Shown here: piece by piece, positions 9,674-45,307 of the stretch | Position numbering within the stretch: the stretch's first letter is position 1 | Layout: each line of letters begins with the position of its first letter | Source of the DNA: a virus | DNA length: 49,882 nt | IMG/VR virus record: IMGVR_UViG_3300045988_133688 | Direction: 5' to 3' (one strand) | The notes under the pieces: model-generated | Told to the model about the DNA's origin: nothing | Databases searched by the model: none | What the model saw: only the letters and a program-made list of their open reading frames with translations | Position numbers and translations under genes: made by a program

Positions 9674-9942
9674 ATCAAAATTCGCGTTATAGGGGTTGAT
9701 ATTATTGGAATAAATAAGATATTCATCTCTCTAAAGAAAATAGCGAGAATGACAGCGAGAATGAGCGACGTCCAAAAACTTAAGCAAAAATCACAATCGA
9801 ACAATTGAGAAATTAGCTTAGGCGCTTTGGTAATTATATTGTCTCTTATACCTAATTTTCCAATCAGCAATATAACGAATGCTGCTGCTAAGGCTATATA
9901 TATTAAAGCCGAAAGCAATGTTATAAAATATACCGTTGACAT
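9670..9942 (-). CDS. Small integral membrane protein (90 aa) with CDFCLSFW motif
   Basis: Two to three hydrophobic helices (ITLLSALIYIALAAAFVILLIG; TSLILAVILAIFF). 4-nt overlap with the downstream gene. Confidence 0.6.
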   Translation of the reverse strand: MSTVYFITLLSALIYIALAAAFVILLIGKLGIRDNIITKAPKLISQLFDCDFCLSFWTSLILAVILAIFFREMNILFIPIISTPITRILI

Positions 9943-11021: not shown

Positions 11022-12362
11022 CTATACAGTTCTATATTTTATACCATTGTTTTTGCAAGGAAGACAAACTCTGTCCATTCCTTCAGTACTAAGCTTAATT
11101 GCCTTAAATGCCATATCGAGTTGATAGCTAAGACCTGATTTTTTCATAGATGAAGAGTCGCCATCAACTTCATATAGAATATCAAGCCTAGAAGCATTTA
11201 TTGAATGCCTATTTGTACGAACATTGGCATTATAGGCAAATTCACGAAGCATATCTACTGCTACTTGTTTTGCTATAATATCTTGGAATAACATCCGCTG
11301 TTCAATTATAAAGTCTGTAATATCACAACTTATTGTTATTTCAAGATTTAAGCCATAGTTGTTATCATAAGTATATTGGTTGTTTTCAACATCCCATAAA
11401 TGTATAGGCTGTTTTGCAAAATCTTCATTAAAATCATCATTGAAATTAACAGCTTCAACCAATTCCTCATTAACATAAAACGGATGCACTTCTATATATT
11501 TAGACCAAGCCATCCAAGCTAATAACTCTTTGCGTGAGCATGAGCCACAGGGCTCTTTAGACCAATCTTTGTCTTTTCTTATAGCTTGACTGCCTTCTGG
11601 GAGTTCAGATTGAAAATAGCATAAATACCAACTACCGCCGGCATCATTGTCTTCACTTTGATAAGGCAAATACACATCATTAAGTGAGAACCATTCTATG
11701 CTGTTTTTACGTATCTTATTAAGCTTTATTATCTTAACAGGTGCATCCATACTAGAATGCATAAGATACAAAGTATATTCGCCAGGCTCTGTAAATTGTA
11801 AACCTATTTTATTGATTTTCGTAGTTACGCCTTTTGCTCTTACAGGTACAATCTCAAAGCCAACCAGATTTTTCTTGTTTTTTACAATATCTACTAAACG
11901 ACCAGTACCGTCGAATAAAGTTCTGTTTTCGCACAAAGTCTTATATGTACCTTGCGCAATTTTTTCATTGCAATATCTAGCAATAGCTTTCTGAATGCTA
12001 GCCTTAGTTTTGCTTTCAAGCCATTCAGAAAATGGATTGGTTTCAACCCAATACTCAGACTCAATATCAGGCTGTTTTCCAGTTGAATTCTGTAAAGCCT
12101 TATATAAAAGACTTCCATACTTTATGACATTGCCTTTAGAATATGACTTTTCTGCATTATACTCCTCAAAAGTCATGTTCTTAAAATCTGGAGCGATACA
12201 AGACATATTCTGCAGTGTCAGCAACGGATGAATTTGCTGAAAGTATAGGCCACTTTCGCTCACAGTTAAAGCATCAGATATTTTTAAGTCTGATGTGTCA
12301 TAATTTTGCTCCCATCCTATTAGATGAAGCAGTTTTTCTTGTATATCTAGAGCTCTAACCAT
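11022..12362 (-). CDS. Hypothetical virion protein (446 aa)
   Basis: First gene after the capsid-gene terminator. Has CGSCSRKE and CLPCKNN Cys pairs. No family recognised. Confidence 0.6.
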   Translation of the reverse strand: MVRALDIQEKLLHLIGWEQNYDTSDLKISDALTVSESGLYFQQIHPLLTLQNMSCIAPDFKNMTFEEYNAEKSYSKGNVIKYGSLLYKALQNSTGKQPDIESEYWVETNPFSEWLESKTKASIQKAIARYCNEKIAQGTYKTLCENRTLFDGTGRLVDIVKNKKNLVGFEIVPVRAKGVTTKINKIGLQFTEPGEYTLYLMHSSMDAPVKIIKLNKIRKNSIEWFSLNDVYLPYQSEDNDAGGSWYLCYFQSELPEGSQAIRKDKDWSKEPCGSCSRKELLAWMAWSKYIEVHPFYVNEELVEAVNFNDDFNEDFAKQPIHLWDVENNQYTYDNNYGLNLEITISCDITDFIIEQRMLFQDIIAKQVAVDMLREFAYNANVRTNRHSINASRLDILYEVDGDSSSMKKSGLSYQLDMAFKAIKLSTEGMDRVCLPCKNNGIKYRTV

Positions 12363-17797: not shown

Positions 17798-17884
17798 ATT
17801 CTCGCATGATTTTTCTATTTTGATTATAATATCTCAAGGACAATATCTCAAAATGATTAGAAATTACGAGAATAATGCGAGAAT
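17798..17884. promoter_or_regulatory. ATTCTCGC-motif cluster: inverted copy at 17798..17807 plus an 11-bp-spaced tandem pair at 17866..17873 and 17877..17884
   Basis: ATTCTCGCAT on the plus strand. ACGAGAAT and GCGAGAAT read on the minus strand as ATTCTCGCATTATTCTCGT. An AATATCTCAA direct repeat (17829..17838 and 17842..17851) lies between them. Confidence 0.5.
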
Positions 17885-18095: not shown

Positions 18096-19673
18096 TCAAT
18101 TTCTTTGATGTATTTTGCGTTTTCCACCTTTCCTACTATGCATCTCCCATACGCCAGTCAAGCAATCTGGAGCATCATCATGCTGATTTCTCTTCTTATT
18201 GTCTTTACGATATGACATAAGCGCATTATAGAACTTGGGCCACTTCTTATCCCAGCCTTCAGGAAACAGAATATCATTTTGAACTTGAGCTGAGGCTGTA
18301 AATATACGTGTTTTCTTATTTTCTGATTGTGTAAATGTTCTGATAGCACACTTAAAGTTACGTAAATCAACTCGAAGTATCTTTTTGACATTTCTTGAGT
18401 AGCCTCGGCCGCCATTATTTGACTCTATCAAGCAGTCAACTGTTTGGTTTCGTGCCAATAATTCAGCTTGCTTTGGCTCTGTTACTTCCATTGGAGCATC
18501 TGTAAACATTACATCTGTCACATAAGCATATTCTGGTGTGTTTATGAAGCAAATAGAACACAAAAAGTCAGCTCCTGTGTCAGCTGTGTCAGTATAATTC
18601 CACTTTTGAAGTGCTTTATTGCCTGTTGGTAGCTCTTCTGGCCTATAAGTTCTAAACCCTTCATACATAAGACCATCTTTTGGAGTTGGGTCTTGCATAT
18701 ACTGTGTATCAAACACTAACGGATTTATCTCACGCATCTTATAGAGCTCTTCAAGTGTATGCTTCATTGGCCATAAGGCGTGTTCTTCACCTGTTTCAGG
18801 GTCTGTTTGTATAACAGGCATTGAAAGTACAGTCCATTCATCAGGCTCTACACCTTGCAAATAACCACACAAATCATGTTCGTGTAGCCTTTGCATAATA
18901 ATTATGATTGGAGTATTACGTGAGTTGGTACGGTTACGAATTGTGTTCTCAAAGCGCATATTGATACGCTCACGGACAATATCAGACTCAGCATCTTCAG
19001 GCTTAATCGGGTCATCGATTACAATTGCACCTTGAAAGATATTAGTCGTAGCTCCTAGCATACCAAGCACTTCATTAGTATGGTCATCAAATACAAAAAT
19101 ATCATTACCACCATCCATTTTATCAATATCTGGGTCAATATCAACATTTCCTGCGCCAAAACCTGTTACCTGACCTTGTGTTGATACTGCATAAAGCTCA
19201 CCACCTGCTTTAGTTTTCCATCTCTTAGCTGACCCTTTCTCAGATGCAAGAGCTGAACTTGGAAAAAGTGCCTTATAAAGCTCTTCTTGCATGATATTTC
19301 GTATTGTCTCCGAATTATCATACACAAGTATATCTGAGTAAGACAGATGCAAAAATCGGCACTTTGGATTTAAGGCAAAGCACCAACTTATAAATGATTT
19401 GATAACAAGCTCGGTTTTACCATATCGAGGTGCTATATTGATTATAAGTCTTTTACATTTGCCATCTACTACATTCTGTAATGCCTCAAACATCCTCTTA
19501 TGATGCTCTGCAACTATAAAAGAACGATGGTACTGAGCTTTGAACATTACCCGTGTATATTTTTCAAAAGATGACAACAGCTCTACCTTCAAAAGCTCTT
19601 TAGGATTTACGGTTCCGCCATTAGAGGTATCTATAGCTGATTGTTGCATCTCCTTTAATGATTTTATTGCCAT
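18096..19673 (-). CDS. terL: Terminase large subunit
   Basis: Walker A-like INIAPRYGKTELV. Acidic Walker B-like IFVFDD / AIVIDDP. C-terminal nuclease-type acidic residues (DTADTGADF, HDDAPDC). 525 aa. Confidence 0.85.
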   Translation of the reverse strand: MAIKSLKEMQQSAIDTSNGGTVNPKELLKVELLSSFEKYTRVMFKAQYHRSFIVAEHHKRMFEALQNVVDGKCKRLIINIAPRYGKTELVIKSFISWCFALNPKCRFLHLSYSDILVYDNSETIRNIMQEELYKALFPSSALASEKGSAKRWKTKAGGELYAVSTQGQVTGFGAGNVDIDPDIDKMDGGNDIFVFDDHTNEVLGMLGATTNIFQGAIVIDDPIKPEDAESDIVRERINMRFENTIRNRTNSRNTPIIIIMQRLHEHDLCGYLQGVEPDEWTVLSMPVIQTDPETGEEHALWPMKHTLEELYKMREINPLVFDTQYMQDPTPKDGLMYEGFRTYRPEELPTGNKALQKWNYTDTADTGADFLCSICFINTPEYAYVTDVMFTDAPMEVTEPKQAELLARNQTVDCLIESNNGGRGYSRNVKKILRVDLRNFKCAIRTFTQSENKKTRIFTASAQVQNDILFPEGWDKKWPKFYNALMSYRKDNKKRNQHDDAPDCLTGVWEMHSRKGGKRKIHQRN

Positions 19674-19674
19674 A

Positions 19675-20013
19675 TTACTTTCTATTTGATATTTTCAAAT
19701 ACTTAGTCCAAGCATAGTGCTTGCGTGTTTCAAGATAAGTCCAATTGTAGGCATTATTGTAAGCTTCTTCTTCAAAAGATACATCTTTATAAGCTCCATG
19801 CTGAGTTTTATGAAAAAGTCTTATAATAATATATTCAAGCCCGTACCATATATAAAAGAATATATAGAGCATTTCTTTCATCTGAGCGGTATGGATTTGT
19901 TCATGAAGAATTGTATCTTTTGTAAGATAATCTCTTTTTGTGAATAAAATTCCAAAAAGGTTTATAGTCGAATAACCTCCAAATGGAAACCAAGATGTTT
20001 TAACTATTTTCAT
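19675..20013 (-). CDS. Small HExxH-motif protein (112 aa)
   Basis: LHEQIHTAQ (HExxH) followed by hydrophobic YIFFYIWYGLEYIIIRLF and FEEEAY. Wedged between terS and terL. Confidence 0.55.
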   Translation of the reverse strand: MKIVKTSWFPFGGYSTINLFGILFTKRDYLTKDTILHEQIHTAQMKEMLYIFFYIWYGLEYIIIRLFHKTQHGAYKDVSFEEEAYNNAYNWTYLETRKHYAWTKYLKISNRK

Positions 20014-20028
20014 AATTATGTATATTTA

Positions 20029-20817
20029 TTACTTTAATAATGCTTCTCTAATTACAATATATGCTTCACGACTTACAGGCACATTAGGAAGAATACCGGT
20101 TTGGAGTTGTTGCTGTTCGGGCAGGTTCAATTGCATTTGACCTTTACCGAATATACGGTCCCAAAGCTTCTCAACTGTTTCTATATTGCCGAGTTTCATA
20201 TCCTCTATGAGGCGTTTAATAACAGTTTTTATTACTACTGGTATTTTCTTGTTATTCATAAGAGCCTGAAGCTGGCTTTCATTACAAGTCAATAAACACG
20301 CCAATAAGTTAGCCGTGTCTTGCTTTGTAAGCTGAACACTTAAGTTTATATTAAGGCTAGTAAGTAGTTTAACAATCTCAGGTCTTGATGCTCCTTGGAG
20401 CTGAAGAAGCTGAGTTGTTTTGCCTGAATATGTACCACCTCTTTGAGCAATCTCAACTGGGTCAAGCGGAGTTATAGTTTGAGCCTCAATTGCTTCAACT
20501 GCTTCAACTCGTTTCTTTTGCTCTGCTACTTTTTGAATTTGAACTGTGGTCGACAGGTCTTCTGCTTCATCCTGTGTCAATCCAAGCTCTTCTGCAAGGC
20601 TCTGTTTCTCTTCAAGCTTTGCTTTTTCGCGTTGTAGGCGGCATTTCTCTATATATTTTATGCGTGCGAGCTCCTTTGCGTCCTTTTTAGCTTTGATGGA
20701 TGCAGCCTCTTTAGCTATAGAAGCTTGAGTTGATGCAGAAGGGCGATTAAGGCTTGGAGCCTGGGTCCTTGTTGGGAGTATAGAGCTAAGCTGCTCTTCT
20801 ATTTTATTCTGTTTCAT
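20029..20817 (-). CDS. terS: Putative terminase small subunit (262 aa)
   Basis: Position upstream of terL. Charged coiled N-terminal half. C-terminal LWDRIFGKG-type segment. Confidence 0.45.
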   Translation of the reverse strand: MKQNKIEEQLSSILPTRTQAPSLNRPSASTQASIAKEAASIKAKKDAKELARIKYIEKCRLQREKAKLEEKQSLAEELGLTQDEAEDLSTTVQIQKVAEQKKRVEAVEAIEAQTITPLDPVEIAQRGGTYSGKTTQLLQLQGASRPEIVKLLTSLNINLSVQLTKQDTANLLACLLTCNESQLQALMNNKKIPVVIKTVIKRLIEDMKLGNIETVEKLWDRIFGKGQMQLNLPEQQQLQTGILPNVPVSREAYIVIREALLK

Positions 20818-21455: not shown

Positions 21456-21470
21456 TGCAAATATACTAAT
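21456..21470 (-). promoter_or_regulatory. Late-operon -7 promoter box (ATTAGTATATTTGCA on the minus strand)
   Basis: About 22 nt upstream of the ATG at 21434. Contains TAnnTTTG. Confidence 0.55.
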
Positions 21471-21536: not shown

Positions 21537-21830
21537 CATTGTTTACGGAAAATTCTTTTGTTTACGCTATAACTTATTGATTTTCAATAACATATCATTT
21601 TTTGGAAACAAAGGAACAAAAGAAACAAAGCCCTATTTAGGTTTATCTTAATCTCTTAAAAACCTATTTATATTAGTATATATTAGCTAATATAAATAAT
21701 AATCTATATTTTATATTTCTTCCTAACGTAATTTTTTATTGTTTATATTGTTTACAAGTGGTCTATTTTATTGAAAATCAATCACTTATGAAGAAACAAT
21801 CAATTGTTTACATTGTTTATTATTGTTTCT
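21537..21830. repeat. Iteron array 1: at least 7 copies of TTGTTTAY/TTGTTTCT, 3 inverted GAAACAA copies, and the palindrome TATATTAGCTAATATA (21679..21694)
   Basis: cattgtttac 21537, ttttgtttac 21556, ggaaacaaaggaacaaaagaaacaaagcc 21604..21632, tattgtttatattgtttac 21737..21755, gaaacaatcaattgtttacattgtttattattgtttct 21793..21830. Confidence 0.85.
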
Positions 21831-21900
21831 AGCCACTTTGCGAGAATGCCTGAAAAGAACGCTTTTGCGATTTTTGACTTGTAGCCACTTTGCGAGAATG
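21830..21900. repeat. Perfect 19-bp direct repeat TAGCCACTTTGCGAGAATG x2 (21830..21848 and 21882..21900)
   Basis: Read directly. Each copy contains GCGAGAAT. Period is 52 bp. Confidence 0.9.
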
Positions 21901-22416
21901 GAGACTTAACTCTCAAAGTTTTTCTGGATATTTGGATGAGTACCAGAATATATAAGGGGGTGCCCCGGTGCCGCACAGCCAGGGGCCTAAATTTTCACAT
22001 TTGTTAACAACCACACTGGCTCATTTCTACGCGTTCTATCGCATTTTGGCTTGGTAGCTGAGTACTTATATGCCTGACTGGCTCAGAGCGCGATACGGAA
22101 TGACTATGGATGCGAGGCATGGTGCCTGAGTGCTTGGTACCACGTTGCTCTCTACCTGAAACCGGCTATCAGCCAGACAGCCAGACGCCAACAAAGTTTA
22201 ACAAACATTTAACACAATATAACATAGCAAAAGTGCCATATCTGAAGAATTTTTATATGGTACTAGCTACCTGCTACCAGCCCATTAAAAAGTGTTAAAA
22301 CAACCAGGCGATTAACACAAATTTAACATGATAATTTTCCTATGTAAAAAGTTTAGCAGGTACCAAAAATAACTGAAAATTTTTATCCAAAAACTTTCAG
22401 GTGTCGGAAATTATAT

Positions 22417-22431
22417 GTATATTTGCATATC
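22417..22431 (+). promoter_or_regulatory. Early-type promoter box TGTATATTTGCATATC
   Basis: Near-identical 15-17-mers at 24592, 25808, 34177 (minus) and 44206 (minus). Contains TAnnTTTG. Confidence 0.55.
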
Positions 22432-22515
22432 AAAATTAAGCTGGAGAGCTTACTAAAGTTACTAACAAATTTTAACGAAAAAAGTTGCTTAAAAACTTTC
22501 TGGTATCAAAATAAA

Positions 22516-22528
22516 TTAGTACTTTAGC
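22516..22528 (+). promoter_or_regulatory. TTAGTACTTTAGC box (variant -7 element), copy 1
   Basis: Identical 13-mer at 27593..27605. Lies about 45 nt upstream of the ATG at 22574. Confidence 0.35.
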
Positions 22529-22573
22529 AGTAGATAAAGAAATAATAAGTATAACAACTAAATAATAGACAGT

Positions 22574-22930
22574 ATGAAAGTAAACCGTAATTATCGTTTC
22601 GTCCTGACAGTTCTGGACAACGAACAGCTCAACGCAGGAGAAATCCGTATCGAGAACGACGCAGTATCTGGCGAGAGAATGTTTGCCAGCGAATGCCACT
22701 ACTATGCCGAGAAAAATATCCTCGAGTGCATTAAGGACGCAGCAAAGCGCGATGACTTGGGCAGCTACTACGCTCATACCTACTGTATCTACAAAGAGGA
22801 CAAACCGAAGAAGGTGGTAACAGAGCGCGAAGAAAACGGCAAAAAAATCACCGAGGAACAGCTCATTGACGGAACTGCAATGCTAGTCGAGGTGATAACT
22901 GTAGACGAAAATGGCGTGAATATCCGCTAA
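22574..22930 (+). CDS. Hypothetical protein (118 aa), first gene of the plus-strand block
   Basis: ORF track. GC-rich coding sequence. Confidence 0.65.
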   Translation: MKVNRNYRFVLTVLDNEQLNAGEIRIENDAVSGERMFASECHYYAEKNILECIKDAAKRDDLGSYYAHTYCIYKEDKPKKVVTEREENGKKITEEQLIDGTAMLVEVITVDENGVNIR

Positions 22931-22939
22931 AAGCGGATA

Positions 22940-22994
22940 GCCCTCTCGGGAGAACTCCCAACAGGAGGCAGCAGTTCGACTCTGCTGGAGGGCG
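22940..22994 (+). ncRNA. Candidate tRNA-like minihelix (7-bp acceptor-like stem, small hairpin, T-arm-like hairpin)
   Basis: GCCCTCT (22940..22946) pairs with GGAGGGC (22987..22993). CAGCAG / TTCGACT loop / CTGCTG at 22969..22987. GGGA-GAAC-TCCC at 22948..22959. Intergenic. Confidence 0.3.
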
Positions 22995-23022
22995 CTAATG
23001 TATAATTAAAACAGTAAACAAT

Positions 23023-23406
23023 ATGGTTAAAACGTATTACCGGAGTGAATACTCCGACAAACAGTGGAAAGCCTTGATTGACAAGGCCGCGGAACTGGGT
23101 TGCCAGGTGACTTATGGCCGATATGGCGACCGTGTCGAAATTGACTCGACAGACCGAGAGAATGCCGTGCTCCAGAGCACCAACAAGAGTGTTGACGACT
23201 GCGCAGCTCGAAGCTTCTGGGCGGAGCATATCCACCAGATGCTGCAGGAGAGCACAGACCTTAGAAGGTGGAAAGTACAGCCCAAGAGATACCGCAAAGG
23301 CTATTGCCCGACTATCTGCAAGAGCCAGAAGTCAGCAGAGCACGAGCAGGAGTGCCTCGAGAGAACAACAGGTTTTGAATGGATAATAACAGTAATACCG
23401 GAGTAA
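23023..23406 (+). CDS. Hypothetical protein (127 aa)
   Basis: ORF track. GC-rich. Confidence 0.65.
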   Translation: MVKTYYRSEYSDKQWKALIDKAAELGCQVTYGRYGDRVEIDSTDRENAVLQSTNKSVDDCAARSFWAEHIHQMLQESTDLRRWKVQPKRYRKGYCPTICKSQKSAEHEQECLERTTGFEWIITVIPE

Positions 23407-23408
23407 TT

Positions 23409-23639
23409 ATGAAGAAAACAGCTTATTTGTACGTTGAAAGAGACGACAGCGAATACGACTACAAAGCCGGATTTGCGAATTATACCGAGGCAAATAACTA
23501 TCGGCAAGAGTGTCAACGCGGTTGGATGAACCATTGCGATTATGTGTATCTTTGGACCGGCTCCGAGAGAATTAACCTCACAAGAATGCCGGAGAACAAG
23601 AGAATTGAATTGCTCAAACAGTTTAACATACCGGAATAA
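23409..23639 (+). CDS. Hypothetical protein (76 aa from the ATG at 23409)
   Basis: Track ORF 23379..23639. The ATG at 23409 follows the upstream stop by 2 nt. Confidence 0.6.
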   Translation: MKKTAYLYVERDDSEYDYKAGFANYTEANNYRQECQRGWMNHCDYVYLWTGSERINLTRMPENKRIELLKQFNIPE

Positions 23640-23640
23640 T

Positions 23641-23862
23641 ATGAGCTGCAAGAGAATTTACAACAGAGTAATGGATGACCGCAGCGGAGTGTGCCCATTG
23701 GGCGAGCTGCTCACCGACAAAGAGCTGGAGCGCATGCGTCTCCACAACTCCAGGAGAGATTGGCCGAATACGGCTAAAGTGACAGTAAAAACAGGAGAAA
23801 TATACTTCAGCTTTGGAGTACGTTTTGCCGAGAGCTATGAATTAATAAAACCGGGAGAATGA
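23641..23862 (+). CDS. Hypothetical protein (73 aa from the ATG at 23641)
   Basis: Track ORF 23542..23862. The ATG at 23641 follows the upstream TAA by 1 nt. Confidence 0.6.
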   Translation: MSCKRIYNRVMDDRSGVCPLGELLTDKELERMRLHNSRRDWPNTAKVTVKTGEIYFSFGVRFAESYELIKPGE

Positions 23863-24065
23863 ACAGCAAGAGAACTTATATTGCCACATTTTGGCGCGGC
23901 AATCCGCAATTAAAGAATGGCGGCTATTATACGACAAAGGAATTTCGAGCCGTGTCGCATAAAGCAGCCGAGAGACAGGCCGAAAGATACACGAAAGGTA
24001 TGGTTTACGGCAGTTTAGACCTCATAAGTGTTGAACTAAAACAAGAGAACAGCGATGGAAAATAA
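23859..24065 (+). CDS. Hypothetical protein (68 aa)
   Basis: ATGA start/stop overlap with the upstream ORF. Confidence 0.6.
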   Translation: MNSKRTYIATFWRGNPQLKNGGYYTTKEFRAVSHKAAERQAERYTKGMVYGSLDLISVELKQENSDGK

Positions 24066-24324
24066 CAGAAGCAAATTTGAGTCACATGGCTATCTTATAA
24101 ATGGCATAGCCGAAAAGCTGGAAATTCAAATCAGCCAGTCAGGAGATGCAGCTCGTTACCAATCCACAATACGGTGGTCTTCAAGAGGCACGGAAGTAAT
24201 TCACGGCCGTTGGCAAGAAATACGCTACTCCAAGAGAAATAACCGCCCGTATATAACAATGTTCGGCAAGAGACTTTATTTAACCAATTTTATGCGTAAT
24301 AATTATGGCACAGAAAGATTTTAG
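24055..24324 (+). CDS. Hypothetical protein (89 aa)
   Basis: 11-nt overlap with the upstream ORF. C-terminal YITMFGKRLYLTNFMR motif. Confidence 0.6.
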   Translation: MENNRSKFESHGYLINGIAEKLEIQISQSGDAARYQSTIRWSSRGTEVIHGRWQEIRYSKRNNRPYITMFGKRLYLTNFMRNNYGTERF

Positions 24325-24532
24325 ATTTGAGTATATGCTGCTTGACCGCCTTCGCTGCGATTGCGAGTATTATCTCGGTTATGGCGGAAAATGCGCAAAA
24401 CAGCTTTGGGCTCATGACGAGCAGAAACAAATCGATAAAATGCGAGAGCTTTACGATTTGTTGCCGATAAAGCCTGAATGGCTTACGAGAGAACAGATTG
24501 ACGAATATGCTGCTCAGATGGGAGCCAAATAA
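24305..24532 (+). CDS. Hypothetical protein (75 aa) with LLDRLRCDCEYYLGYGG...KPEWLTREQIDEY pattern
   Basis: ORF track. Overlap-coupled to the upstream ORF. Confidence 0.6.
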   Translation: MAQKDFRFEYMLLDRLRCDCEYYLGYGGKCAKQLWAHDEQKQIDKMRELYDLLPIKPEWLTREQIDEYAAQMGAK

Positions 24533-24591
24533 TAACCAACATTTTTTAACGAAAAAAGTTCCTGAAGCAGTATTCTAATTCAAAAGAAATA

Positions 24592-24608
24592 TGTATATTT
24601 GTATATCG
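24592..24608 (+). promoter_or_regulatory. Early-type promoter box TGTATATTTGTATATCG
   Basis: Box 22 nt upstream of the ATG at 24630. Preceded by TTAACGAAAAAAGTT (24546..24560), which also occurs at 22472..22486. Confidence 0.55.
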
Positions 24609-24629
24609 AAACTTAAATAATAAACGAAT

Positions 24630-24983
24630 ATGAAAAAAGAATTTGAGTACGCCGCTATTTTTAACGCAAACGACGTAAAAGACGACTTCATCAGCTGCAT
24701 AGCTTCAGTTGTGGAAGAGTGTAATGAAACTGCAATCTTGGTTGAAAGCCGACAGGGCATAGACCGTATCGCTGATGTGCTCAACACATACGAAAGCGGA
24801 AAACCGGAACTGCGCCTGCAGATACATGAGGACGTCGCAAGACAATATAACATCGAGGCTGAAACTACAGAGGCATTGTTTAACGTAGCAGCAATCATAA
24901 GAAACAACACGAGAACCTCATTTGAGGAAAGCCTCAAGATAGTTACAGCTATCACAGAAAACTATAATATATCACACAAATAA
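24630..24983 (+). CDS. Hypothetical protein (117 aa)
   Basis: ORF track. Confidence 0.65.
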   Translation: MKKEFEYAAIFNANDVKDDFISCIASVVEECNETAILVESRQGIDRIADVLNTYESGKPELRLQIHEDVARQYNIEAETTEALFNVAAIIRNNTRTSFEESLKIVTAITENYNISHK

Positions 24984-24992
24984 CTCGCAGAT

Positions 24993-25181
24993 ATGGAACA
25001 GAAAACTTATTACGTAGCAGTTGCCTTTGGCACAATCTTTCAGCCCACAATTGTGGAGAAGTTCGACAACGTGACAGACGCAGAGAGCTATGCAGCTCTT
25101 ATGTGCCGCACGAAGAAAGCACGATACATTGTGCTTGAACAGCAAACAGAGTGGGACGGCACTCCTCAGGAGAATGCATAA
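24993..25181 (+). CDS. Hypothetical protein (62 aa)
   Basis: ORF track. Confidence 0.55.
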   Translation: MEQKTYYVAVAFGTIFQPTIVEKFDNVTDAESYAALMCRTKKARYIVLEQQTEWDGTPQENA

Positions 25182-25270
25182 CCCTTAGCCGCTGCAAGAG
25201 GATTGGCTTTAAGCGCGGAGCGATACCGCCAGCGGCACAAATTCAATAACAATTCAAAATTTACAGCATT

Positions 25271-25483
25271 ATGGTAACAGTAAAATTTTCAACTGACAAG
25301 CTGGACAACGGAACATTTCTTATATTTCCTACTGTCCTGGTAGACAAATCAGAGAAGAAGACAAAAGCGGCTATCGCAATCTGCTTTGCATGGATAAACG
25401 GCTTATTTGAAGTCGGTATCAAGTGGAGCCGCAAGGTAACTAACCAAGAAACAGCTCAGGACAATGGCAGTGAAGAAAAATGA
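25271..25483 (+). CDS. Hypothetical protein (70 aa)
   Basis: ORF track. Preceded by the duplicated leader at 25245..25274. Confidence 0.55.
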   Translation: MVTVKFSTDKLDNGTFLIFPTVLVDKSEKKTKAAIAICFAWINGLFEVGIKWSRKVTNQETAQDNGSEEK

Positions 25484-25730
25484 AATGTTCGTAACAGCCT
25501 ATCGTCTTCAGGTTGAGGCAACTCGAGAGAACTTGAACAGCATGGAGGACTTCGTAGAAGCCATTTCGGATTGCGCTATCGTGTCCAACGAAGAGGGTTA
25601 TGTAGCTATCATAGTAGCGTCTTCGGACGCCTTAGGGACCACGAAATTGGCAAATATGGCACTTAAATTCTTTGGCAAAGAAGGATATTCTATAAGTATG
25701 TTAGGACTCCTGGGGCCGTTTAAGAAATAA
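25464..25730 (+). CDS. Hypothetical protein (88 aa)
   Basis: ORF track. 20-nt overlap with the upstream ORF. Confidence 0.55.
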   Translation: MAVKKNEMFVTAYRLQVEATRENLNSMEDFVEAISDCAIVSNEEGYVAIIVASSDALGTTKLANMALKFFGKEGYSISMLGLLGPFKK

Positions 25731-25807
25731 AGAATTACGGTTGACATTTTTTAACATAGAAACAGATAAAAAAATACTCAAATAATTTTTCTAGTTTGAA
25801 AATAGTT

Positions 25808-25824
25808 TGTATATTTGCATATCG
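25808..25824 (+). promoter_or_regulatory. Early-type promoter box TGTATATTTGCATATCG
   Basis: About 47 nt upstream of the ATG at 25871. Confidence 0.55.
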
Positions 25825-25870
25825 AAATTAAATAAATAACGTTTTAATAACAATTCAAAATTACAGTATT

Positions 25871-27019
25871 ATGGCAACAAATAAATTTGCTCAGATGACA
25901 ACCAAGAAGCTGAACGCCCTCATGGAAACAGCAAGTGACGAAGACAAGAAGGCTATCGAGGCCGTACTCGCAGCCCGTGAACAGGCTCAGGTTCCTAAAG
26001 CCGCCGAGGAGACTGTCGAAGCTCCCGCTGAGGCACCTGCAGCAGAGGAAACTCCGCTTACTCCCGAAGAGGAAGCAGCTATCAAGGCAGCCGAAGAGAA
26101 TGGCGGACTCAACCCGCTCTACAATGGCAGCAAGGCAGCTCAGGAGAAAAAGCCGAAGATGACTGATGAAGAGCGTCACACTTTGGCCGAAGAGCTGAAG
26201 AAAAACATCAATCACCGCTGTCAGGCAGTTCCTTTCAACACCGCAGAATGGGTTGACGGTTACATTGCCGGAGTGATTGAAGAGAAGCGCAGCAACAAAG
26301 TGCTCTACGCAATCAAGACTGACGATGGACGCCGCATCGTTAAGGTGCATGACAGCAATCTCGTTCGTATTTTCGACGAGGTGGTTGAGCCGGAGAAGAA
26401 GGTCCGCACTCGCAAATCAAAAGACGGCGGTGTTGAGAAAGTTGAATGGACACCGGAAGCAATAGCTACTGCCGTAAACGAGGTTATTGGTAACGTCGGC
26501 AAGGCGGTTAAATTCGAGAAGTACCGCACGACTGACCCGGAGACTGGCGAGGAGAAAATCGAGTACAATGAAGGCCGTATCGTGGCTATCGTGCCCGACA
26601 AGCGTGCTCAGCGACTTCTCTATCGCATTTCAGTTCCTGCTCCGATTGAGGGCAATCCGCTGGCGACCAAAATCATGCATAAGGTTGTTACTGCAGACCT
26701 CGAAATTGCTGAGGCATTTGACGCCGAAGGCGAAGAGCTCAACAAAAAGTATTGCGAGCGCCGTGAGGCCGCAGCTACTCGCACCCCGCTCACTCCTCAG
26801 GACCGCTTCGTAAAATGCGAAGAGGCTTTGAAGAAGGCCGAAGAGAAGTTGCAGAAAGCAACTGAAGAGCTGGAAGCTAAAAAGCAGCAGCTCGAGGATG
26901 CTCGCAAGGAGCTGGATGAATGGCTCGCAGGCCAGGGCGCTAGTCCTGTCGAGGCTCCAGCAGAAGAGACAGCCGAAGCTCCCGCTGAGGCAACTGAAGA
27001 GACTGACCCACTTGCATAG
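25871..27019 (+). CDS. Acidic Ala/Glu-rich protein with an internally duplicated small domain and a C-terminal coiled coil (382 aa)
   Basis: GYIAGVIEEKRSNKVLYAI and GRIVAIVPDKRAQRLLYRI are duplicated segments. APAEAP-type acidic tails at both ends. Followed by a strong terminator. Confidence 0.75.
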   Translation: MATNKFAQMTTKKLNALMETASDEDKKAIEAVLAAREQAQVPKAAEETVEAPAEAPAAEETPLTPEEEAAIKAAEENGGLNPLYNGSKAAQEKKPKMTDEERHTLAEELKKNINHRCQAVPFNTAEWVDGYIAGVIEEKRSNKVLYAIKTDDGRRIVKVHDSNLVRIFDEVVEPEKKVRTRKSKDGGVEKVEWTPEAIATAVNEVIGNVGKAVKFEKYRTTDPETGEEKIEYNEGRIVAIVPDKRAQRLLYRISVPAPIEGNPLATKIMHKVVTADLEIAEAFDAEGEELNKKYCERREAAATRTPLTPQDRFVKCEEALKKAEEKLQKATEELEAKKQQLEDARKELDEWLAGQGASPVEAPAEETAEAPAEATEETDPLA

Positions 27020-27044
27020 TCTACAGTTAGTTTCTCCCAACGAA

Positions 27045-27079
27045 GCCGCTCTACCGCTTAATGGTAGAGCGGCTTTTTT
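27045..27079 (+). terminator. Intrinsic terminator
   Basis: GCCGCTCTACC (27045..27055), 7-nt loop, GGTAGAGCGGC (27063..27073), then TTTTTT (27074..27079). Confidence 0.85.
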
Positions 27080-27187
27080 GTATACTTATATTTAACTACG
27101 GCACTGCTTTATGCATAAACAGCCTTAACGCCATTGTCGTCGTGAATGTTAAAATATGTAAACGCTCAGAAACATGCTTCTTTCGCA

Positions 27188-27436
27188 TTCTAGGACACTT
27201 TTAGGTTTAAGATGTATATTTATATGGGTCAACTCATTTGAACGCGATAGAGGTCAAAAGAAGTGTATCTATCTATGAATTTTTATTGAGCCTAAAATAT
27301 AGATTTGATATGTTCTACGGCATTATGACTTGTGAACTTTACTGCAATATAGATAACTGTTAAATTTGAGGTAAAAAGTCGACTCATTCTCGCGCGTTCT
27401 AGGACACTTTTATTTTGAGCCCATATAAATATACAT
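27188..27436. repeat. Composite repeat: 16-bp direct repeat TTCTAGGACACTTTTA (27188..27203 and 27397..27412), each followed by one arm of a perfect 17-bp inverted repeat ATGTATATTTATATGGG (27212..27228) / CCCATATAAATATACAT (27420..27436)
   Basis: Read directly from the sequence. Confidence 0.9.
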
Positions 27437-27592
27437 TTTCAAAAAGAAATGAGGAGAGAATGAACGAGAGGCATGAAATTTCATATATTTTTAGGCTATC
27501 TTTATATATAAAATTCAAGCCATTGCAGCAATAAACCAGATGAAAAATTTTTATGTTAAAAGTGTTAAAACAGTGTTCTATATCAAATTTAT

Positions 27593-27605
27593 TTAGTACT
27601 TTAGC
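27593..27605 (+). promoter_or_regulatory. TTAGTACTTTAGC box, copy 2
   Basis: Identical to 22516..22528. Lies about 210 nt upstream of the ATG at 27816. Confidence 0.35.
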
Positions 27606-27815
27606 CTATAAAAGAATAAAGATAAAACTGTTAAAAAGTGTTACATACTAGAGTAGCTGATTGCAGCTTGGCCCTATTGGTTAGGCAGTTTGAGCCTGAG
27701 TGCTCGAACTGTATTGGGCGTATACATAACGGCTTATGTGCCGGATGCCCACGCAAGAGTCCTGCGTTGGTAGTAAAATTGGCCGAGAGAATATCCGCCA
27801 CAACTGGACAGGAGA

Positions 27816-28070
27816 ATGGCCAAGAGAATAACAGGAGAAATGTTGAACAATTTTAATATAAAAAGCAATATGGAAAATATCGAACAAGAGAATACCCAAG
27901 AGGTACAGCAAGAGAATAACTTGCTTGAAGGAGCTCAGCCTGTTGCTCTTTCAGAAGAAACAACAGAAATGCCACAAGCAGTTCAGTTAGTACAGCCCAA
28001 AGAAGCTATAGATAATATGGCAGAAATTGAAAGGCAGTATCGTGAAACAATTGAGCGGGAGAATATATGA
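27816..28070 (+). CDS. Acidic hypothetical protein (84 aa; start uncertain, alternatives at 27840 and 27870)
   Basis: ORF track. ATGA overlap with the next ORF. Confidence 0.55.
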   Translation: MAKRITGEMLNNFNIKSNMENIEQENTQEVQQENNLLEGAQPVALSEETTEMPQAVQLVQPKEAIDNMAEIERQYRETIERENI

Positions 28071-28543: not shown

Positions 28544-28557
28544 TAGCCTAACAAGAG

Positions 28558-28600
28558 AAATATAGCGGGAGAATACATTAAGTAATTTCCCGCTATTTTT
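28558..28600. terminator. Bidirectional terminator between convergent operons
   Basis: ATAGCGGGA (28562..28570) pairs with TCCCGCTAT (28588..28596). Flanked by AAA upstream and TTTT downstream. Confidence 0.75.
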
Positions 28601-29310
28601 TATTCTTCCCGTATAACGAGAGAATAACCTAAAGCTCGCTTAGTTACAATCGATATTCTCTCATCCATTTTAAGATAATTTCGTAAATGGCATATATTTA
28701 CATCTAAGCTACGTTTATTCCAGTAATTATTTTCCCCTCGCCATAGTCTTTGCATTATTACACTTGTTTGTAATACCTCGCCTTCATAAGCACAAAGTAA
28801 AGCGAGCAGTTGAGTTTCTTTGGCAGGGAGCTTTATTTCAGTATTATCTATAGCAAGTGTATCACTAAGAACGTCAAATCTGTAATTGCCCAATCGATAA
28901 GCATTTTGAATTGTTCTTGTCTTTATGCCGCATCGTTTAAGGGCTATATTTATTTTACGCACAAGTATTTCAAGATTATACGGCCTGATTATATAGTCAT
29001 CTGCACCTTCATCATAAGCTTCAATTATGAATTGGTATTTTGACAAATCAGAAACCATAATAACAGGTGTAGACTTATCCGCTTTGCGCAGAATTTTCAA
29101 TAAAGATAAGTTGCCTATACCTACAGATTTATAATGGCTTAAAATGCATAAATCATAGCCGCCATTTTTTATCTTCTGTATTATATCTTCTCTGTTTGAA
29201 GTTATAACATCAAAACCGTAAAATATAAGGTAGTCAACCATTATGCTACAGTCTTCATCTTGATAAACAAGAATTTTCGGTTGTGATATAGCATCTTTAG
29301 AAGTTTTCAT
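28600..29310 (-). CDS. Atypical OmpR/PhoB-family response regulator (degenerate receiver plus winged-helix DNA-binding domain)
   Basis: Receiver-like KILVYQDED...YDLCILSHY...TPVIMVSD...GADDYIIRPY. Trans_reg_C-like YRLGNYRFD...LPAKETQLLALL...RLW...RSLDVNICHLRNYL...IVTKRALGYSL. Confidence 0.8.
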   Translation of the reverse strand: MKTSKDAISQPKILVYQDEDCSIMVDYLIFYGFDVITSNREDIIQKIKNGGYDLCILSHYKSVGIGNLSLLKILRKADKSTPVIMVSDLSKYQFIIEAYDEGADDYIIRPYNLEILVRKINIALKRCGIKTRTIQNAYRLGNYRFDVLSDTLAIDNTEIKLPAKETQLLALLCAYEGEVLQTSVIMQRLWRGENNYWNKRSLDVNICHLRNYLKMDERISIVTKRALGYSLVIREE

Positions 29311-30167
29311 AAATTGTCAATTTTATTTTTTAAGTCGTTAAACAGTATTTCAAACCAAAATGGATTTAGCCTAAGCAAGTCAAAATAAGAATATACGCCT
29401 TTACGAACTATCATAGAGGCATATTTTAATTCTTTTTCTGCTCTTACCTTATTGTGCGTATTATAAGACGCAACAGCCTTATCTATGTTTATAAGATAAT
29501 TTGCATACTTTATTGACTTTTGGAGCTCTGCTTGTTCCGTATTTTGTTTGAAATAATAAGGTATATCAGGCATTGCCCAGAATGTTTGTCCTTCGCCATA
29601 TTCCTTACTTGCTCTATATAAAAAACCAGGACACTCTTTCATTGACTCTGGATATATCATCTTACAAATCCTAATTCTTCTTGGTATTAAAGGATTGATA
29701 AGAGTTGCTAATCTTTTATTTATATAAGTTGCATATTTCTCTATCATTCTAGTATGCTCAGCAGTAAGTAGAGTTATAAGCAACTTAAGATTATCATTTC
29801 CTATAGGGTCACTAAGTCGTAAATAATCCTGATTAAAAGCCATTCGTTGTATGGCAATTCTATCTTCTTTAAGCTTTCTGCGTTTTGCTTCTCGAGTTCT
29901 CTGTGCTTTTTTATAGGCTTCGATGATAGCAGGCTTACTGAAGAAATACTTACCGAATTTTCGCCAAGCATCATCTCCATAGTAAGCCTCTATCATTGCA
30001 TTTTCTTCTGACTCAGATAATTCAGTATGCTCTTCTTCAAGTTCTATCTTTTCAATAGCCTCATTTTGAGCTTCCTCAATCTCTTCATCATCACCTTTTA
30101 TTTCGCTAAGAAATTCAAGATATTCCTTATCTGTTAAGTCACCATATCTTTCTTCGATGTTTTCCAT
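29307..30167 (-). CDS. Hypothetical protein with acidic N-terminus (286 aa)
   Basis: ORF track. 4-nt overlap with the regulator gene. Confidence 0.65.
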   Translation of the reverse strand: MENIEERYGDLTDKEYLEFLSEIKGDDEEIEEAQNEAIEKIELEEEHTELSESEENAMIEAYYGDDAWRKFGKYFFSKPAIIEAYKKAQRTREAKRRKLKEDRIAIQRMAFNQDYLRLSDPIGNDNLKLLITLLTAEHTRMIEKYATYINKRLATLINPLIPRRIRICKMIYPESMKECPGFLYRASKEYGEGQTFWAMPDIPYYFKQNTEQAELQKSIKYANYLINIDKAVASYNTHNKVRAEKELKYASMIVRKGVYSYFDLLRLNPFWFEILFNDLKNKIDNL

Positions 30168-32183: not shown

Positions 32184-32200
32184 ACGCTTAAGATTTATAT

Positions 32201-32285
32201 ATTCTCGCGCGCTCTAGAGCCCATGCGTTTTTCTGAATATATTTCTTTTGTTTCATACTTTGCATGCGATATTACGCGCGAGAAT
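32201..32285. repeat. 11-bp inverted repeat ATTCTCGCGCG (32201..32211) / CGCGCGAGAAT (32275..32285), 63-nt spacer
   Basis: Read directly. Lies in the intergenic gap between the dUTPase-like gene and the 58-aa ORF. Confidence 0.9.
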
Positions 32286-32304
32286 AATGTATAAATCAAT
32301 TCAT

Positions 32305-34176: not shown

Positions 34177-34193
34177 AGATATGCAAATATACT
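34177..34193 (-). promoter_or_regulatory. Internal promoter box (minus-strand reading AGTATATTTGCATATCT)
   Basis: Contains TAnnTTTG. Flanking sequence is homologous to the 44195..44260 promoter region. Confidence 0.5.
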
Positions 34194-41316: not shown

Positions 41317-41397
41317 GAGTATAGGCGGGACTCGAACCCGCATAACAGGCACACAAACCAATGGCGCTCTGTGGTTTTACCATTAAACTACTATACT
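41317..41397 (-). tRNA. tRNA-like gene with a non-canonical anticodon arm (isotype undetermined)
   Basis: Minus strand: acceptor AGTATAG/CTATACT, D arm GTTT-AATGGTA-AAAC, T arm GCGGG-TTCGAGT-CCCGC. The middle 31 nt folds as ACAG-A-GCGC / 11-nt loop CATTGGTTTGT / GTGC-CTGT, not as a 5-bp stem with a 7-nt loop. Confidence 0.5.
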
Positions 41398-44205: not shown

Positions 44206-44222
44206 CGATATGCAAATATACA
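44206..44222 (-). promoter_or_regulatory. Early leftward promoter box (minus-strand reading TGTATATTTGCATATCG)
   Basis: Identical core to the plus-strand early boxes. Confidence 0.6.
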
Positions 44223-44336: not shown

Positions 44337-44542
44337 GTAAACAATGGAAACAATAGAAACAAAGCCTCGTATATTTCTAACCTAATTTCTTAAATTCCGA
44401 TTAACTCTATGGTTAATCAATATCTAGATTAGCGTAATATAAAAGATTTATATTTCTATTGTTTACATTGTTTACAGCATATCTAAGTGATTGATTTTGA
44501 GCACTTTAGAGCATAAACAATGGATTGTTTCTATTGTTTATC
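44337..44542. repeat. Iteron array 2, homologous to 21537..21830
   Basis: gtaaacaatggaaacaatagaaacaaagcc 44337..44366, ctattgtttacattgtttac 44456..44475, ataaacaatggattgtttctattgtttatc 44513..44542. The core aagtgattgatttt (44485..44498) is inverted relative to locus 1. Confidence 0.85.
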
Positions 44543-45195: not shown

Positions 45196-45215
45196 ATTCT
45201 CGCGTATTCTCGCAT
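45196..45215. promoter_or_regulatory. Tandem 10-bp direct repeat ATTCTCGCGT ATTCTCGCAT, 10 nt from the ATG of 44548..45186
   Basis: Read directly from the sequence. Confidence 0.6.
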
Positions 45216-45249: not shown

Positions 45250-45299
45250 TAATATAAAAGCCATTCTCGGAATAATTTCTTATATACGAGAATGGCTTT
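45250..45299 (-). terminator. 13-bp perfect hairpin AAAGCCATTCTCG / CGAGAATGGCTTT followed on the minus strand by TATATT; intrinsic terminator after the amidase gene
   Basis: Arms at 45257..45269 and 45287..45299, 17-nt loop. Both arms contain the ATTCTCG motif. Confidence 0.6.
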
Positions 45300-45307
45300 A
45301 ATCAGTT

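Follow-up and report, generated by a model that had tools for sequence, protein, structure and literature searches.

The stretch of DNA analysed here, the 49,882 nt of IMG/VR virus record IMGVR_UViG_3300045988_133688 (hereafter the window), represents a virulent gut Bacteroides-type phage of roughly 50 kb. Structural, lysis and T7-like replication modules are present: tail, tape-measure, virion and terminase genes lie at 1-21 kb, a holin and an amidase gene at 45.3-46.2 kb, on the strand of the regulator described below and further upstream, and the replication block comprises genes for a Gp2.5-like SSB, an exonuclease, a family-A DNA polymerase, a VapE-type primase-helicase, an SNF2 helicase, a methyltransferase, a dUTPase and a thymidylate synthase. 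Among cultured phages, the nearest relatives belong to the BF486P2 group of B. fragilis phages, with a DNA polymerase 69% identical to that of the window; these modules and relatives confirm that the regulator is phage-encoded, as had been proposed in an earlier reading of the sequence alone (the sequence-only reading). No RNA polymerase was detected among the phage ORFs scanned. A pattern listing returned seven TATATTTGCA boxes in the window, all of them in sense orientation ahead of gene blocks, and TATATTTGCA matches the Bacteroides -7 promoter consensus TAnnTTTG. With host-type -7 boxes and no polymerase of its own, the phage thus seems to depend on the host polymerase.

The regulator, a product of 236 amino acids in the ORF list, is encoded by the final gene of its strand block and closes a unit of replication and nucleotide-metabolism genes. 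The features at this end of the unit are:

28600..29310, minus strand: coding sequence of the pseudo-response regulator, with a receiver and a winged-helix DNA-binding domain (ORF list; PF00072 and PF00486; phrog_731; 430 homologues)
29307..30167, minus strand: upstream gene of 286 amino acids, with synteny preserved in nearly all relatives; the regulator-less BF486P2 has it too (ORF list, genomic contexts)
28557..28601, no strand assigned: stem-loop with a U-run between the regulator and a convergent 158-aa gene, likely a bidirectional terminator (RNA fold)
34182..34191, minus strand: nearest upstream -7 box (TATATTTGCA), likely the promoter for the unit whose final gene is the regulator (pattern listing)

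The start of the regulator gene overlaps the stop of the 286-aa gene by 4 nt (ATGA) and is translationally coupled to it; the product of the 286-aa gene has no match in Pfam, PHROGs, NCBIfam, PADLOC or the PDB sequences. On the other side, 56 nt separate the regulator from the convergent 158-aa gene. The stem-loop in this gap folds with -20.7 kcal/mol (z -6.3) on the plus strand and -16.9 kcal/mol (z -3.4) on the minus strand; it was overlooked by a simple terminator scan because of its long loop and was recovered by direct folding. The regulator had been described as the last gene of an early operon. Its terminal position holds, given the convergent neighbour and the terminator hairpin; the label "early" is not established, since the unit is one of replication and nucleotide metabolism, and the block of small plus-strand genes at 22-28.5 kb is a more typical early region. 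The late genes appear to extend from 21.4 kb down to 1 kb and to continue, through circular permutation, from 49.9 to 45.3 kb.

Domain structure and phosphorylation pocket of the regulator

The regulator has the architecture of an OmpR/PhoB-type protein, with both an N-terminal receiver and a C-terminal winged helix. Pfam assigns residues 157-231 to Trans_reg_C (PF00486; E 1.2e-14, 54.6 bits against a cutoff of 26.2) and residues 37-120 to Response_reg (PF00072; E 1.3e-8, 35.5 bits against a cutoff of 30.2); the receiver match begins at profile position 28, and the diverged region of beta1 and the acidic pair lies outside it. The profile of phrog_731 covers the protein in full length (E 1.9e-29; residues 12-231 on profile positions 3-224 of 227), and the best solved relatives found by phmmer in the PDB are full-length OmpR/PhoB proteins, namely RegX3 (E 6.7e-19), followed by PrrA, DrrD, BasR and KdpE. 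An AlphaFold2 model with a mean pLDDT of 84 displays a (beta-alpha)5 receiver, after which come a beta-sheet, three helices and a wing. In Foldseek searches, the model matches receiver-only PDB entries with a TM of about 0.9 and an rmsd of about 2 A, and matches KdpE, PrrA, RpaA and PmrA in full length, several of which were solved as DNA complexes; 2hqr (HP1043/HsrA), 8hih (GlnR) and 8uvk (CosR) are also among the structural matches. Pfam, the PDB matches and the AlphaFold2 model therefore agree with the earlier description of 28600..29310 as an OmpR-type protein composed of a receiver and Trans_reg_C. The domains are placed as follows:

28933..29277, minus strand: pseudo-receiver domain, residues 12-126, with a (beta-alpha)5 fold (AlphaFold2, Foldseek, dN/dS 0.12)
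28612..28902, minus strand: winged-helix (Trans_reg_C) domain, residues 137-233 (Pfam, AlphaFold2, Foldseek, dN/dS 0.19)
within 28612..28902, minus strand: recognition helix at about residues 196-215 and wing residues Thr223/Arg225 of the winged-helix domain

The landmark residues of the receiver were placed by four routes: the phmmer alignment with RegX3, a MAFFT alignment with PhoB and CheY, a MAFFT alignment with 150 library representatives, and the strand ends of the AlphaFold2 model. In the alignment with RegX3 (2oqr), "DIVLLD" stands against "DLCILS" and "VEDE" against "YQDE" of the regulator, and the AlphaFold2 strands 12-16, 54-58, 83-87 and 105-108 terminate at Q17/D18, S58, S87 and R109, respectively. 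All four routes are concordant, and the codons were checked:

29257..29262, minus strand: codons of Gln17-Asp18, replacing the metal-binding acidic pair (alignments, codons)
29137..29139, minus strand: codon AGC of Ser58, which takes the place of the phospho-acceptor Asp where beta3 ends (alignments, AlphaFold2, codons)
29050..29052, minus strand: codon of Ser87, at the conserved Thr/Ser position at the end of beta4 (alignments, codons)
28984..28986, minus strand: codon of Arg109, replacing the conserved Lys at the end of beta5, with Pro110 next to it (alignments, codons)

The regulator consequently lacks the phospho-acceptor Asp at the end of beta3, and the Mg2+-binding acidic pair that follows beta1 is not intact. 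The pair formed by the conserved Thr/Ser and Lys is half kept, with Ser87 retained and Lys exchanged for Arg109, and as a pair it is not preserved. These are the substitutions given in the sequence-only reading (QD, Ser58, a kept Ser and Arg), and none of the four routes, which include a profile-type alignment, places an Asp at the acceptor position. Among the neighbouring positions, K+1 (Pro110) and K-3 (Tyr106) are retained; D+4 is Ser instead of Pro and T+1 is Asp instead of a small residue, both of which are kinds of changes listed for pseudo-receivers in a 2025 review (PMC12632262). With a domain that passes the PF00072 threshold and three of five catalytic residues replaced, the protein falls among the pseudo-receivers as that review defines them (PMC12632262). 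Neither HisKA nor HATPase_c was detected in the phage ORFs scanned with Pfam and PHROGs or in the neighbour genes of the relatives, precomputed Pfam calls included, in accordance with the earlier statement that no histidine kinase is encoded. Judged by its residues, the receiver has lost the chemistry for Asp phosphorylation.

Drift and constraint across the phage clade

The pocket statistics of the close family refer to 189 distinct sequences. The first acidic position is Gln in 187 of them and gapped in the remaining two, the Thr/Ser position is Ser, and the Lys position is occupied by Arg (182 sequences), Lys (4) or Ile (2). At position 58, 139 sequences have Ser, 39 have Gly and 10 have Asp, and one further lineage, L095, has Ala at the acceptor position; the adjacent residue 59 is His in 185 of the 189 sequences and residue 60 is Tyr in all ungapped ones. 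The acceptor codons (AGC/AGT for Ser, GGA for Gly and GCG for Ala versus GAC/GAT for Asp) indicate separate replacements in different sublineages. A single-step codon path from Asp via Gly to Ser was considered and dropped, as Gly encoded by GGA and Ser encoded by AGC/AGT do not fit a simple path; hence, repeated replacement at position 58 is all that is claimed. One relative, P0071, retains both the acceptor Asp and the Lys. In the wider clade (44 representatives with 30-52% identity), Gln at the first acidic position is the hallmark and the second acidic position is variable and mostly non-acidic, while the acceptor is usually still Asp, which implies that the metal site was lost first and that the acceptor drifted afterwards. 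On the evidence of these alignments, the acceptor position 58 is not under selection and drifts freely.

The beta3-alpha3 loop is likewise unconstrained, with an entropy of 3.03 in the phage clade versus 1.32 in canonical relatives. Conservation of the alpha4-beta5-alpha5 face equals that seen in canonical receivers (D104 0.98, D105 0.82, Y106 0.86, P110 1.0, L116 0.82, R119 0.77, A122 0.84 and R126 0.82), and clade-wide changes relative to canonical proteins within alpha4 comprise the loss of D94 and the exchange of G98 for A. It had been considered that the Arg-Glu salt bridge of the PhoB dimer has turned into an Ile-Ile pair in the regulator; this was dropped, since the wider clade keeps Glu at position 115. 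Several tyrosines are invariant in the receiver, and helix positions 205, 207, 208 and 211 of the DNA-binding domain are unlike the canonical consensus. The median dN/dS is 0.12 for the receiver and 0.19 for the DNA-binding domain, indicating purifying selection on both, and about 190 distinct sequences retain an intact reading frame. Drift at the acceptor and an unconstrained loop, in combination with a preserved dimer face and purifying selection, point to a functional protein which no longer uses Asp phosphorylation.

We consider it fairly probable that the regulator is a phosphorylation-independent transcription factor of the OmpR/PhoB type, that is a pseudo-response regulator, which probably acts as a dimer. 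Phosphorylation-independent action had been proposed before, and it is the most reasonable interpretation, strengthened by the drifting acceptor, the clade-wide loss of the metal site and the unconstrained beta3-alpha3 loop. By analogy to HP1043, ChxR and GlnR, the pseudo-receiver would no longer be a switch and would serve as a constitutive dimerisation module via its alpha4-beta5-alpha5 face, and the dimer would set two winged helices on the DNA. Its activity would then be governed by the timing of its synthesis and the amount of protein made; as its gene closes the replication and nucleotide-metabolism unit, the regulator would accumulate during replication. It is more speculative that the regulator modulates the host polymerase at phage promoters, a suggestion drawn from the missing phage RNA polymerase and the host sigma-A-type promoters. 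Residual phosphorylation may occur in those members of the clade that keep the acceptor Asp, one of which, P0071, also keeps the Lys.

Pseudo-receivers account for about 6% of bacterial receivers and many of them are dimeric without phosphorylation; HP1043, ChxR, GlnR and CosR are the reference cases among atypical OmpR/PhoB proteins (PMC12632262). HP1043/HsrA of Helicobacter, ChxR of Chlamydia, GlnR of actinomycetes and CosR of Campylobacter resemble the phage regulator in their two domains, degenerate pocket and orphan status, and they form a constitutive alpha4-beta5-alpha5 dimer, which is presumed by analogy for the phage protein. In contrast to these proteins, the regulator is carried by a virulent phage, belongs to a separate, RprY-derived clade, has Gln at the first acidic position and possesses a drifting acceptor. 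A more distant parallel is provided by the plant PRRs, in which the receiver fold was also kept as an interaction module after Asp phosphorylation had been lost (PMC12632262); however, these proteins have other output domains, Glu as the replacement and an unrelated biology. The kind of protein is well known in bacteria, and what is unusual here is the phage carrier: no paper describing a phage-borne OmpR-type pseudo-regulator was found in the literature searched. The phrog_731 and "response regulator [Caudoviricetes sp.]" entries are automatic annotations that state no function, and their pseudo-receiver state, phage-only clade and synteny are not noted in the literature searched.

Distribution, ancestry and a possible host target

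A word-indexed search yielded 430 relatives of the regulator, mostly on contigs ending near 50 kb, and an exhaustive search of 1.8 billion representatives yielded 33 relatives at E < 1e-30; the nearest outgroup clusters likewise come from contigs of about 47-57 kb. A search of 185,579 species genomes gave one match, located on a 33-kb contig of a MAG. The contigs of about 50 kb and this single match argue that the clade is effectively phage-only and that the regulator is not a prophage gene. A close relative of the gene was not found among GenBank phage sequences searched by DNA and by protein. In all contexts retrieved, the layout is essentially shared: a thymidylate synthase gene, small genes, a gene of about 290 amino acids and the regulator, which usually faces convergent genes. 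This layout persists from 100% down to 38% identity, and the regulator is present in 80 of 80 IMG/VR loci that were retrieved by means of the neighbour gene. In the cultured BF486P2 group, the flanking genes occur and the regulator is missing; as these phages live without it, the gene is accessory within the wider phage type and no core requirement. BF486P2 is also the only regulator-less lineage found among the relatives in the collections, so that the co-occurrence of the gene with the sequence motifs described below can be assessed with one independent negative.

The top NCBIfam model for the regulator is RprY (NF051850; E 8.6e-42, 143.1 bits over the full length), followed at a distance by Bacteroidetes PhoB with 88 bits. 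The score of 143.1 bits stays far below the RprY equivalog cutoff of 370 bits, and the regulator is therefore a derived relative rather than an orthologue of RprY. The nearest canonical proteins in the alignment of 150 representatives bear the signature "ILDVMMP", which is typical of Bacteroidota regulators. RprY and the phage regulator have the recognition-helix framework Y-(F/W)-N-x-R-S-(M/L)-D-V...L-R-x-Y-L-K in common; however, RprY has the complete catalytic set E-D-D-T-K and differs at the probable base-contacting positions. In Bacteroides, RprY is paired with the kinase RprX (PMC3646045). RprY of P. gingivalis is an orphan whose receiver domain is phosphorylated on a tyrosine by the kinase UbK1 (PMC13241743).

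This ancestry raises the question whether the regulator serves host takeover. As a mimic descended from RprY, it would occupy RprY-type promoters of the host, or pair with the host's RprY-like regulators in mixed dimers through the shared alpha4-beta5-alpha5 face, and would thereby rewire host stress or envelope genes during infection. We regard this as possible rather than probable. Among named families, RprY scores by far the highest, "ILDVMMP" is present in the nearest canonical representatives, and the dimer face is conserved as in canonical relatives; furthermore, the gene is accessory and lies at the end of an operon, a typical place for acquired host-interaction genes. However, the score far under the RprY cutoff, the off-consensus helix positions 205, 207, 208 and 211 and the alpha4 changes at D94 and G98 speak against a mimic of the host protein.

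Repeated words and alternative modes of action

Two words are over-represented in the window and were considered as operators of the regulator. ATTCTCGC occurs in 12 copies versus 1.6 expected, 11 of which are intergenic. It is found in 80 of 80 IMG/VR loci and, apart from L014, in all regulator-bearing phages with an identity of 44% or more; the regulator-less BF486P2 shows no enrichment of the word. About 20% of the sites have a partner on the same strand at a distance of 10-12 bp, most sites are solitary, and several co-oriented copies lie upstream of late genes. The close inverted pairs are convergent in 55 of 55 cases and divergent in none. The ATTCTCGC loci of interest are:

32193..32293, minus strand: conserved hairpin downstream of the dUTPase gene, whose invariant base stem is a ATTCTCGC/GCGAGAAT pair (alifold, covariance model, fold z -5.3)
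17798..17884, no strand assigned: ATTCTCGC bracket in the gap between terminase and portal genes, consisting of a tandem pair 11 bp apart and a convergent copy (sense-strand hairpin, z -3.4)
9743..9762, minus strand: tandem ATTCTCGC pair spaced by 12 bp, 70-90 nt ahead of a virion-protein gene; does not fold
21840..21899, minus strand: direct repeats of 22 nt, 52 bp apart, that contain two ATTCTCGC copies and precede the late block
45196..45213, plus strand: tandem ATTCTCGC pair spaced by 10 bp, lying 10 nt ahead of the start codon at 45186

The best-conserved ATTCTCGC "pair" is the hairpin of about 88 nt downstream of the dUTPase gene. Compensatory changes occur in 12 of its 23 base pairs (alifold), 97.8% of the cells are paired versus 88% in shuffled alignments, with none of 500 shuffles reaching the observed value, and the covariation amounts to 0.343 versus 0.04-0.08 when the partners are slid by 1-3 columns. 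Furthermore, G.U cells are more numerous than A.C cells, and the covariance model favours the sense strand, with 117.7 bits versus 30 bits on the antisense strand. The covariance model identified no further copies in the window, and no matching family was found in Rfam. In total, at least three ATTCTCGC loci of the window fold on the sense strand with the word in the stem, one of which, at about 45250-45300, resembles an intrinsic terminator; no fold is formed by the tandem sites at 9.7 kb and 21.8 kb. An action of the word at the RNA level is thus possible. The repeats pointed out in the sequence-only reading are real, over-represented and intergenic, but their interpretation as plain DNA sites needs to be reconsidered in view of the three loci that fold as sense-strand hairpins. 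ATTCTCGC may act in RNA, in DNA or in both; it is a candidate site only, and its link to the regulator is putative.

The second word, TAAACAAT, occurs in 16 copies versus 4.9 expected in the window and forms direct-repeat arrays with a period of 9 bp upstream of two promoter boxes:

21538..21829, minus strand: direct-repeat array of [T/G]AAACAA[T/A], a candidate operator, preceding the -7 box at 21456, which stands at the head of the packaging/late block
44338..44540, no strand assigned: second TAAACAAT array, a candidate operator or a set of origin iterons, upstream of the -7 box at 44211

The degenerate pattern [T/G]AAACAA[T/A] carries the first array out to 21822-21829, again with a dominant spacing of 9 bp, and the second array lies inside a non-coding gap of 370 nt in the replication module. 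The TAAACAAT array is conserved in regulator-bearing loci and absent from BF486P2, L014, L096 and L098. ATTCTCGC and TAAACAAT have the same lineage distribution and are confined to regulator-bearing lineages; both are missing from three regulator-bearing phages with more diverged DNA-binding domains, namely L014, L096 and L098. In L014, the Thr/Arg of the wing are lost. The helix positions 205 and 208, which usually contact bases, vary among phages that share the motifs. TAAACAAT is at least as good an operator candidate as ATTCTCGC; it could also be an origin iteron. A published RprY binding site with which the phage motifs could be compared was not found in the literature searched. Among the other words inspected, CACACGCG, which is over-represented in L014, was rejected as an operator as it belongs to an 18-nt tandem repeat inside a gene; the top words of L096 stem from a 29-nt intergenic iteron array, and that of L098 is a separate palindrome.

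The sequence-only reading had proposed that the regulator is a middle-to-late switch which binds the ATTCTCGC repeats on the phage DNA. Several observations are in line with this idea: the word is over-represented and intergenic in regulator-bearing phages and not enriched in BF486P2, the same-strand spacing of 10-12 bp fits the head-to-tail binding of OmpR/PhoB proteins, co-oriented copies precede late genes, and the motif-less L014 is the phage without the wing Thr/Arg. On the other hand, three loci form hairpins, one of which has strong covariation and one of which is terminator-like, all 55 inverted pairs are convergent, most sites are solitary, and the comparison with regulator-less phages comprises one independent lineage. 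While a regulatory role as such is plausible, we consider this particular form of it rather unlikely. For the phosphorylation-independent dimer favoured here, the TAAACAAT arrays upstream of the two promoter boxes would be the candidate operators and the ATTCTCGC repeats less likely ones.

It is tempting to speculate further that the RprY-derived clade provides the main temporal or conditional regulator of widespread, polymerase-less Bacteroides phages of the human gut, and that the pseudo-receiver, beyond a part in dimerisation, senses a host cue such as a metabolite, host RprY or a UbK-type kinase, thereby coupling phage expression to host physiology; as a whole, we hold this proposal to be decidedly unlikely. 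A further alternative is non-canonical phospho-regulation, in which a host Ser/Thr/Tyr kinase would act on Ser58 or on a receiver tyrosine, or a host histidine kinase on the Asp variants. The phosphorylation of the P. gingivalis RprY receiver by UbK1 (PMC13241743), the invariant tyrosines of the regulator, the Asp58 of ten close relatives and the Asp and Lys of P0071 would suit such a mechanism, but the metal site is lost clade-wide and the phosphoryl-contacting loop is unconstrained. Moreover, position 58 is Gly or Ala in whole sublineages, and a mechanism based on phospho-Ser58 can therefore not be general; we regard phospho-regulation of this kind as very improbable. That the regulator is a decaying passenger gene without function, as the lost catalytic residues and its absence from cultured relatives might suggest, is hardly credible in view of a dN/dS of 0.12-0.19, an intact frame in about 190 sequences, conserved synteny and a coupled start.

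For gut Bacteroides phages that are abundant and have no RNA polymerase of their own, the phage clade provides an entry point into transcription control. How bacterial pseudo-receivers are switched on and off is largely unknown according to the 2025 review (PMC12632262), and the clade represents a compact natural test set, with hundreds of variants of a protein that is conserved elsewhere, Asp, Ser, Gly or Ala at the acceptor position, small genomes and few promoters. Annotation would also be affected, in that such genes should be labelled as kinase-independent regulators and not as parts of two-component systems. One close relative already bears the GenBank name "MAG TPA: response regulator", and other viral receiver proteins are found in BFVD.

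Promoter-type boxes and repeated motifs

The box TATATTTGCA, which matches the Bacteroides -7 promoter consensus, is present in seven exact copies in the window, all seven of which are oriented with the downstream genes, and these copies likely provide the transcription-unit map of the window.

2024, 17726, 21456, 34182 and 44211, minus strand: TATATTTGCA boxes
22418 and 25810, plus strand: TATATTTGCA boxes

In each of the two longest non-coding gaps, [T/G]AAACAA[T/A] direct repeats form an array with a period of 9 bp, and a TATATTTGCA box is located downstream of each array. These arrays could be operators or replication-origin iterons.

21538-21829: direct-repeat array
44338-44540: direct-repeat array

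The octamer ATTCTCGC, which had been proposed in the sequence-only reading as the DNA target of the OmpR-type pseudo-response regulator, is approximately 8-fold over-represented in the window. Its copies are nearly all intergenic and are arranged in tandem (10-12 bp apart), as convergent pairs (approximately 70-90 nt apart) or as single copies.

9743-9762, 17798-17884, 21840-21899, 27386, 32201-32285, 41441 and 45196-45213: ATTCTCGC sites

Structured elements downstream of the dUTPase and amidase genes

32193-32293, minus strand: conserved structured element of approximately 88-100 nt between the dUTPase gene and the next gene
45250-45300, minus strand: terminator-like hairpin 3' of the amidase gene

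The element downstream of dUTPase contains 23 pairs, 12 of which show compensatory changes, and its base stem UAUUCUCGCGCG/CGCGCGAGAAUA is invariant. No Rfam family was found for 32193-32293; the element could serve in RNA processing, in termination or as a regulatory hairpin. The stem of the amidase-downstream hairpin (CCAUUCUCG/CGAGAAUGG) contains the ATTCTCGC word and is followed by a U-rich tail.

The gene upstream of the regulator and variation among relatives

29307-30167, minus strand: gene for a 286-aa protein

The regulator is translationally coupled to this gene, which is also found in the regulator-less B. fragilis phage group BF486P2. The N-terminus of the protein is acidic and its C-terminal half (PGFLYRAS...IPYYFxQNTEQ...NPFWF) is highly conserved; Pfam, PHROGs, NCBIfam, PADLOC and PDB gave no match for it.

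Among the loci of relatives (own numbering), L013 carries an acyl-carrier-like PP-binding gene inserted between the 290-aa gene and the regulator (8095-8352), L011 an intein within the terminase gene (18381-20717) and L096 an intergenic iteron array of nine copies of a 29-nt unit (11889-12142); in L098, the palindrome GTTCCACGTGGAAC recurs at 410, 636, 1574 and 5542.

Other genes and regions

41317-41397, minus strand: tRNA gene, located between the genes for SSB and DNA polymerase (Rfam, 46 bits)
48734-49765, minus strand: GDSL-family lipase/esterase domain protein, adjoining the tail-fibre and lysis genes
25871-27019, plus-strand small-gene block: 382-aa Ala/Glu-rich protein

ARAGORN reported an irregular anticodon loop ('ccat') for the tRNA gene and no amino-acid assignment. 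The GDSL-family protein may act on surface polysaccharide as an esterase associated with the virion. The 382-aa protein had no informative match. The plus-strand small-gene block (22000-28000) has a clearly higher G+C content than the remaining sequence (0.44-0.45 versus 0.33-0.40), and its GC and AT skew are reversed.
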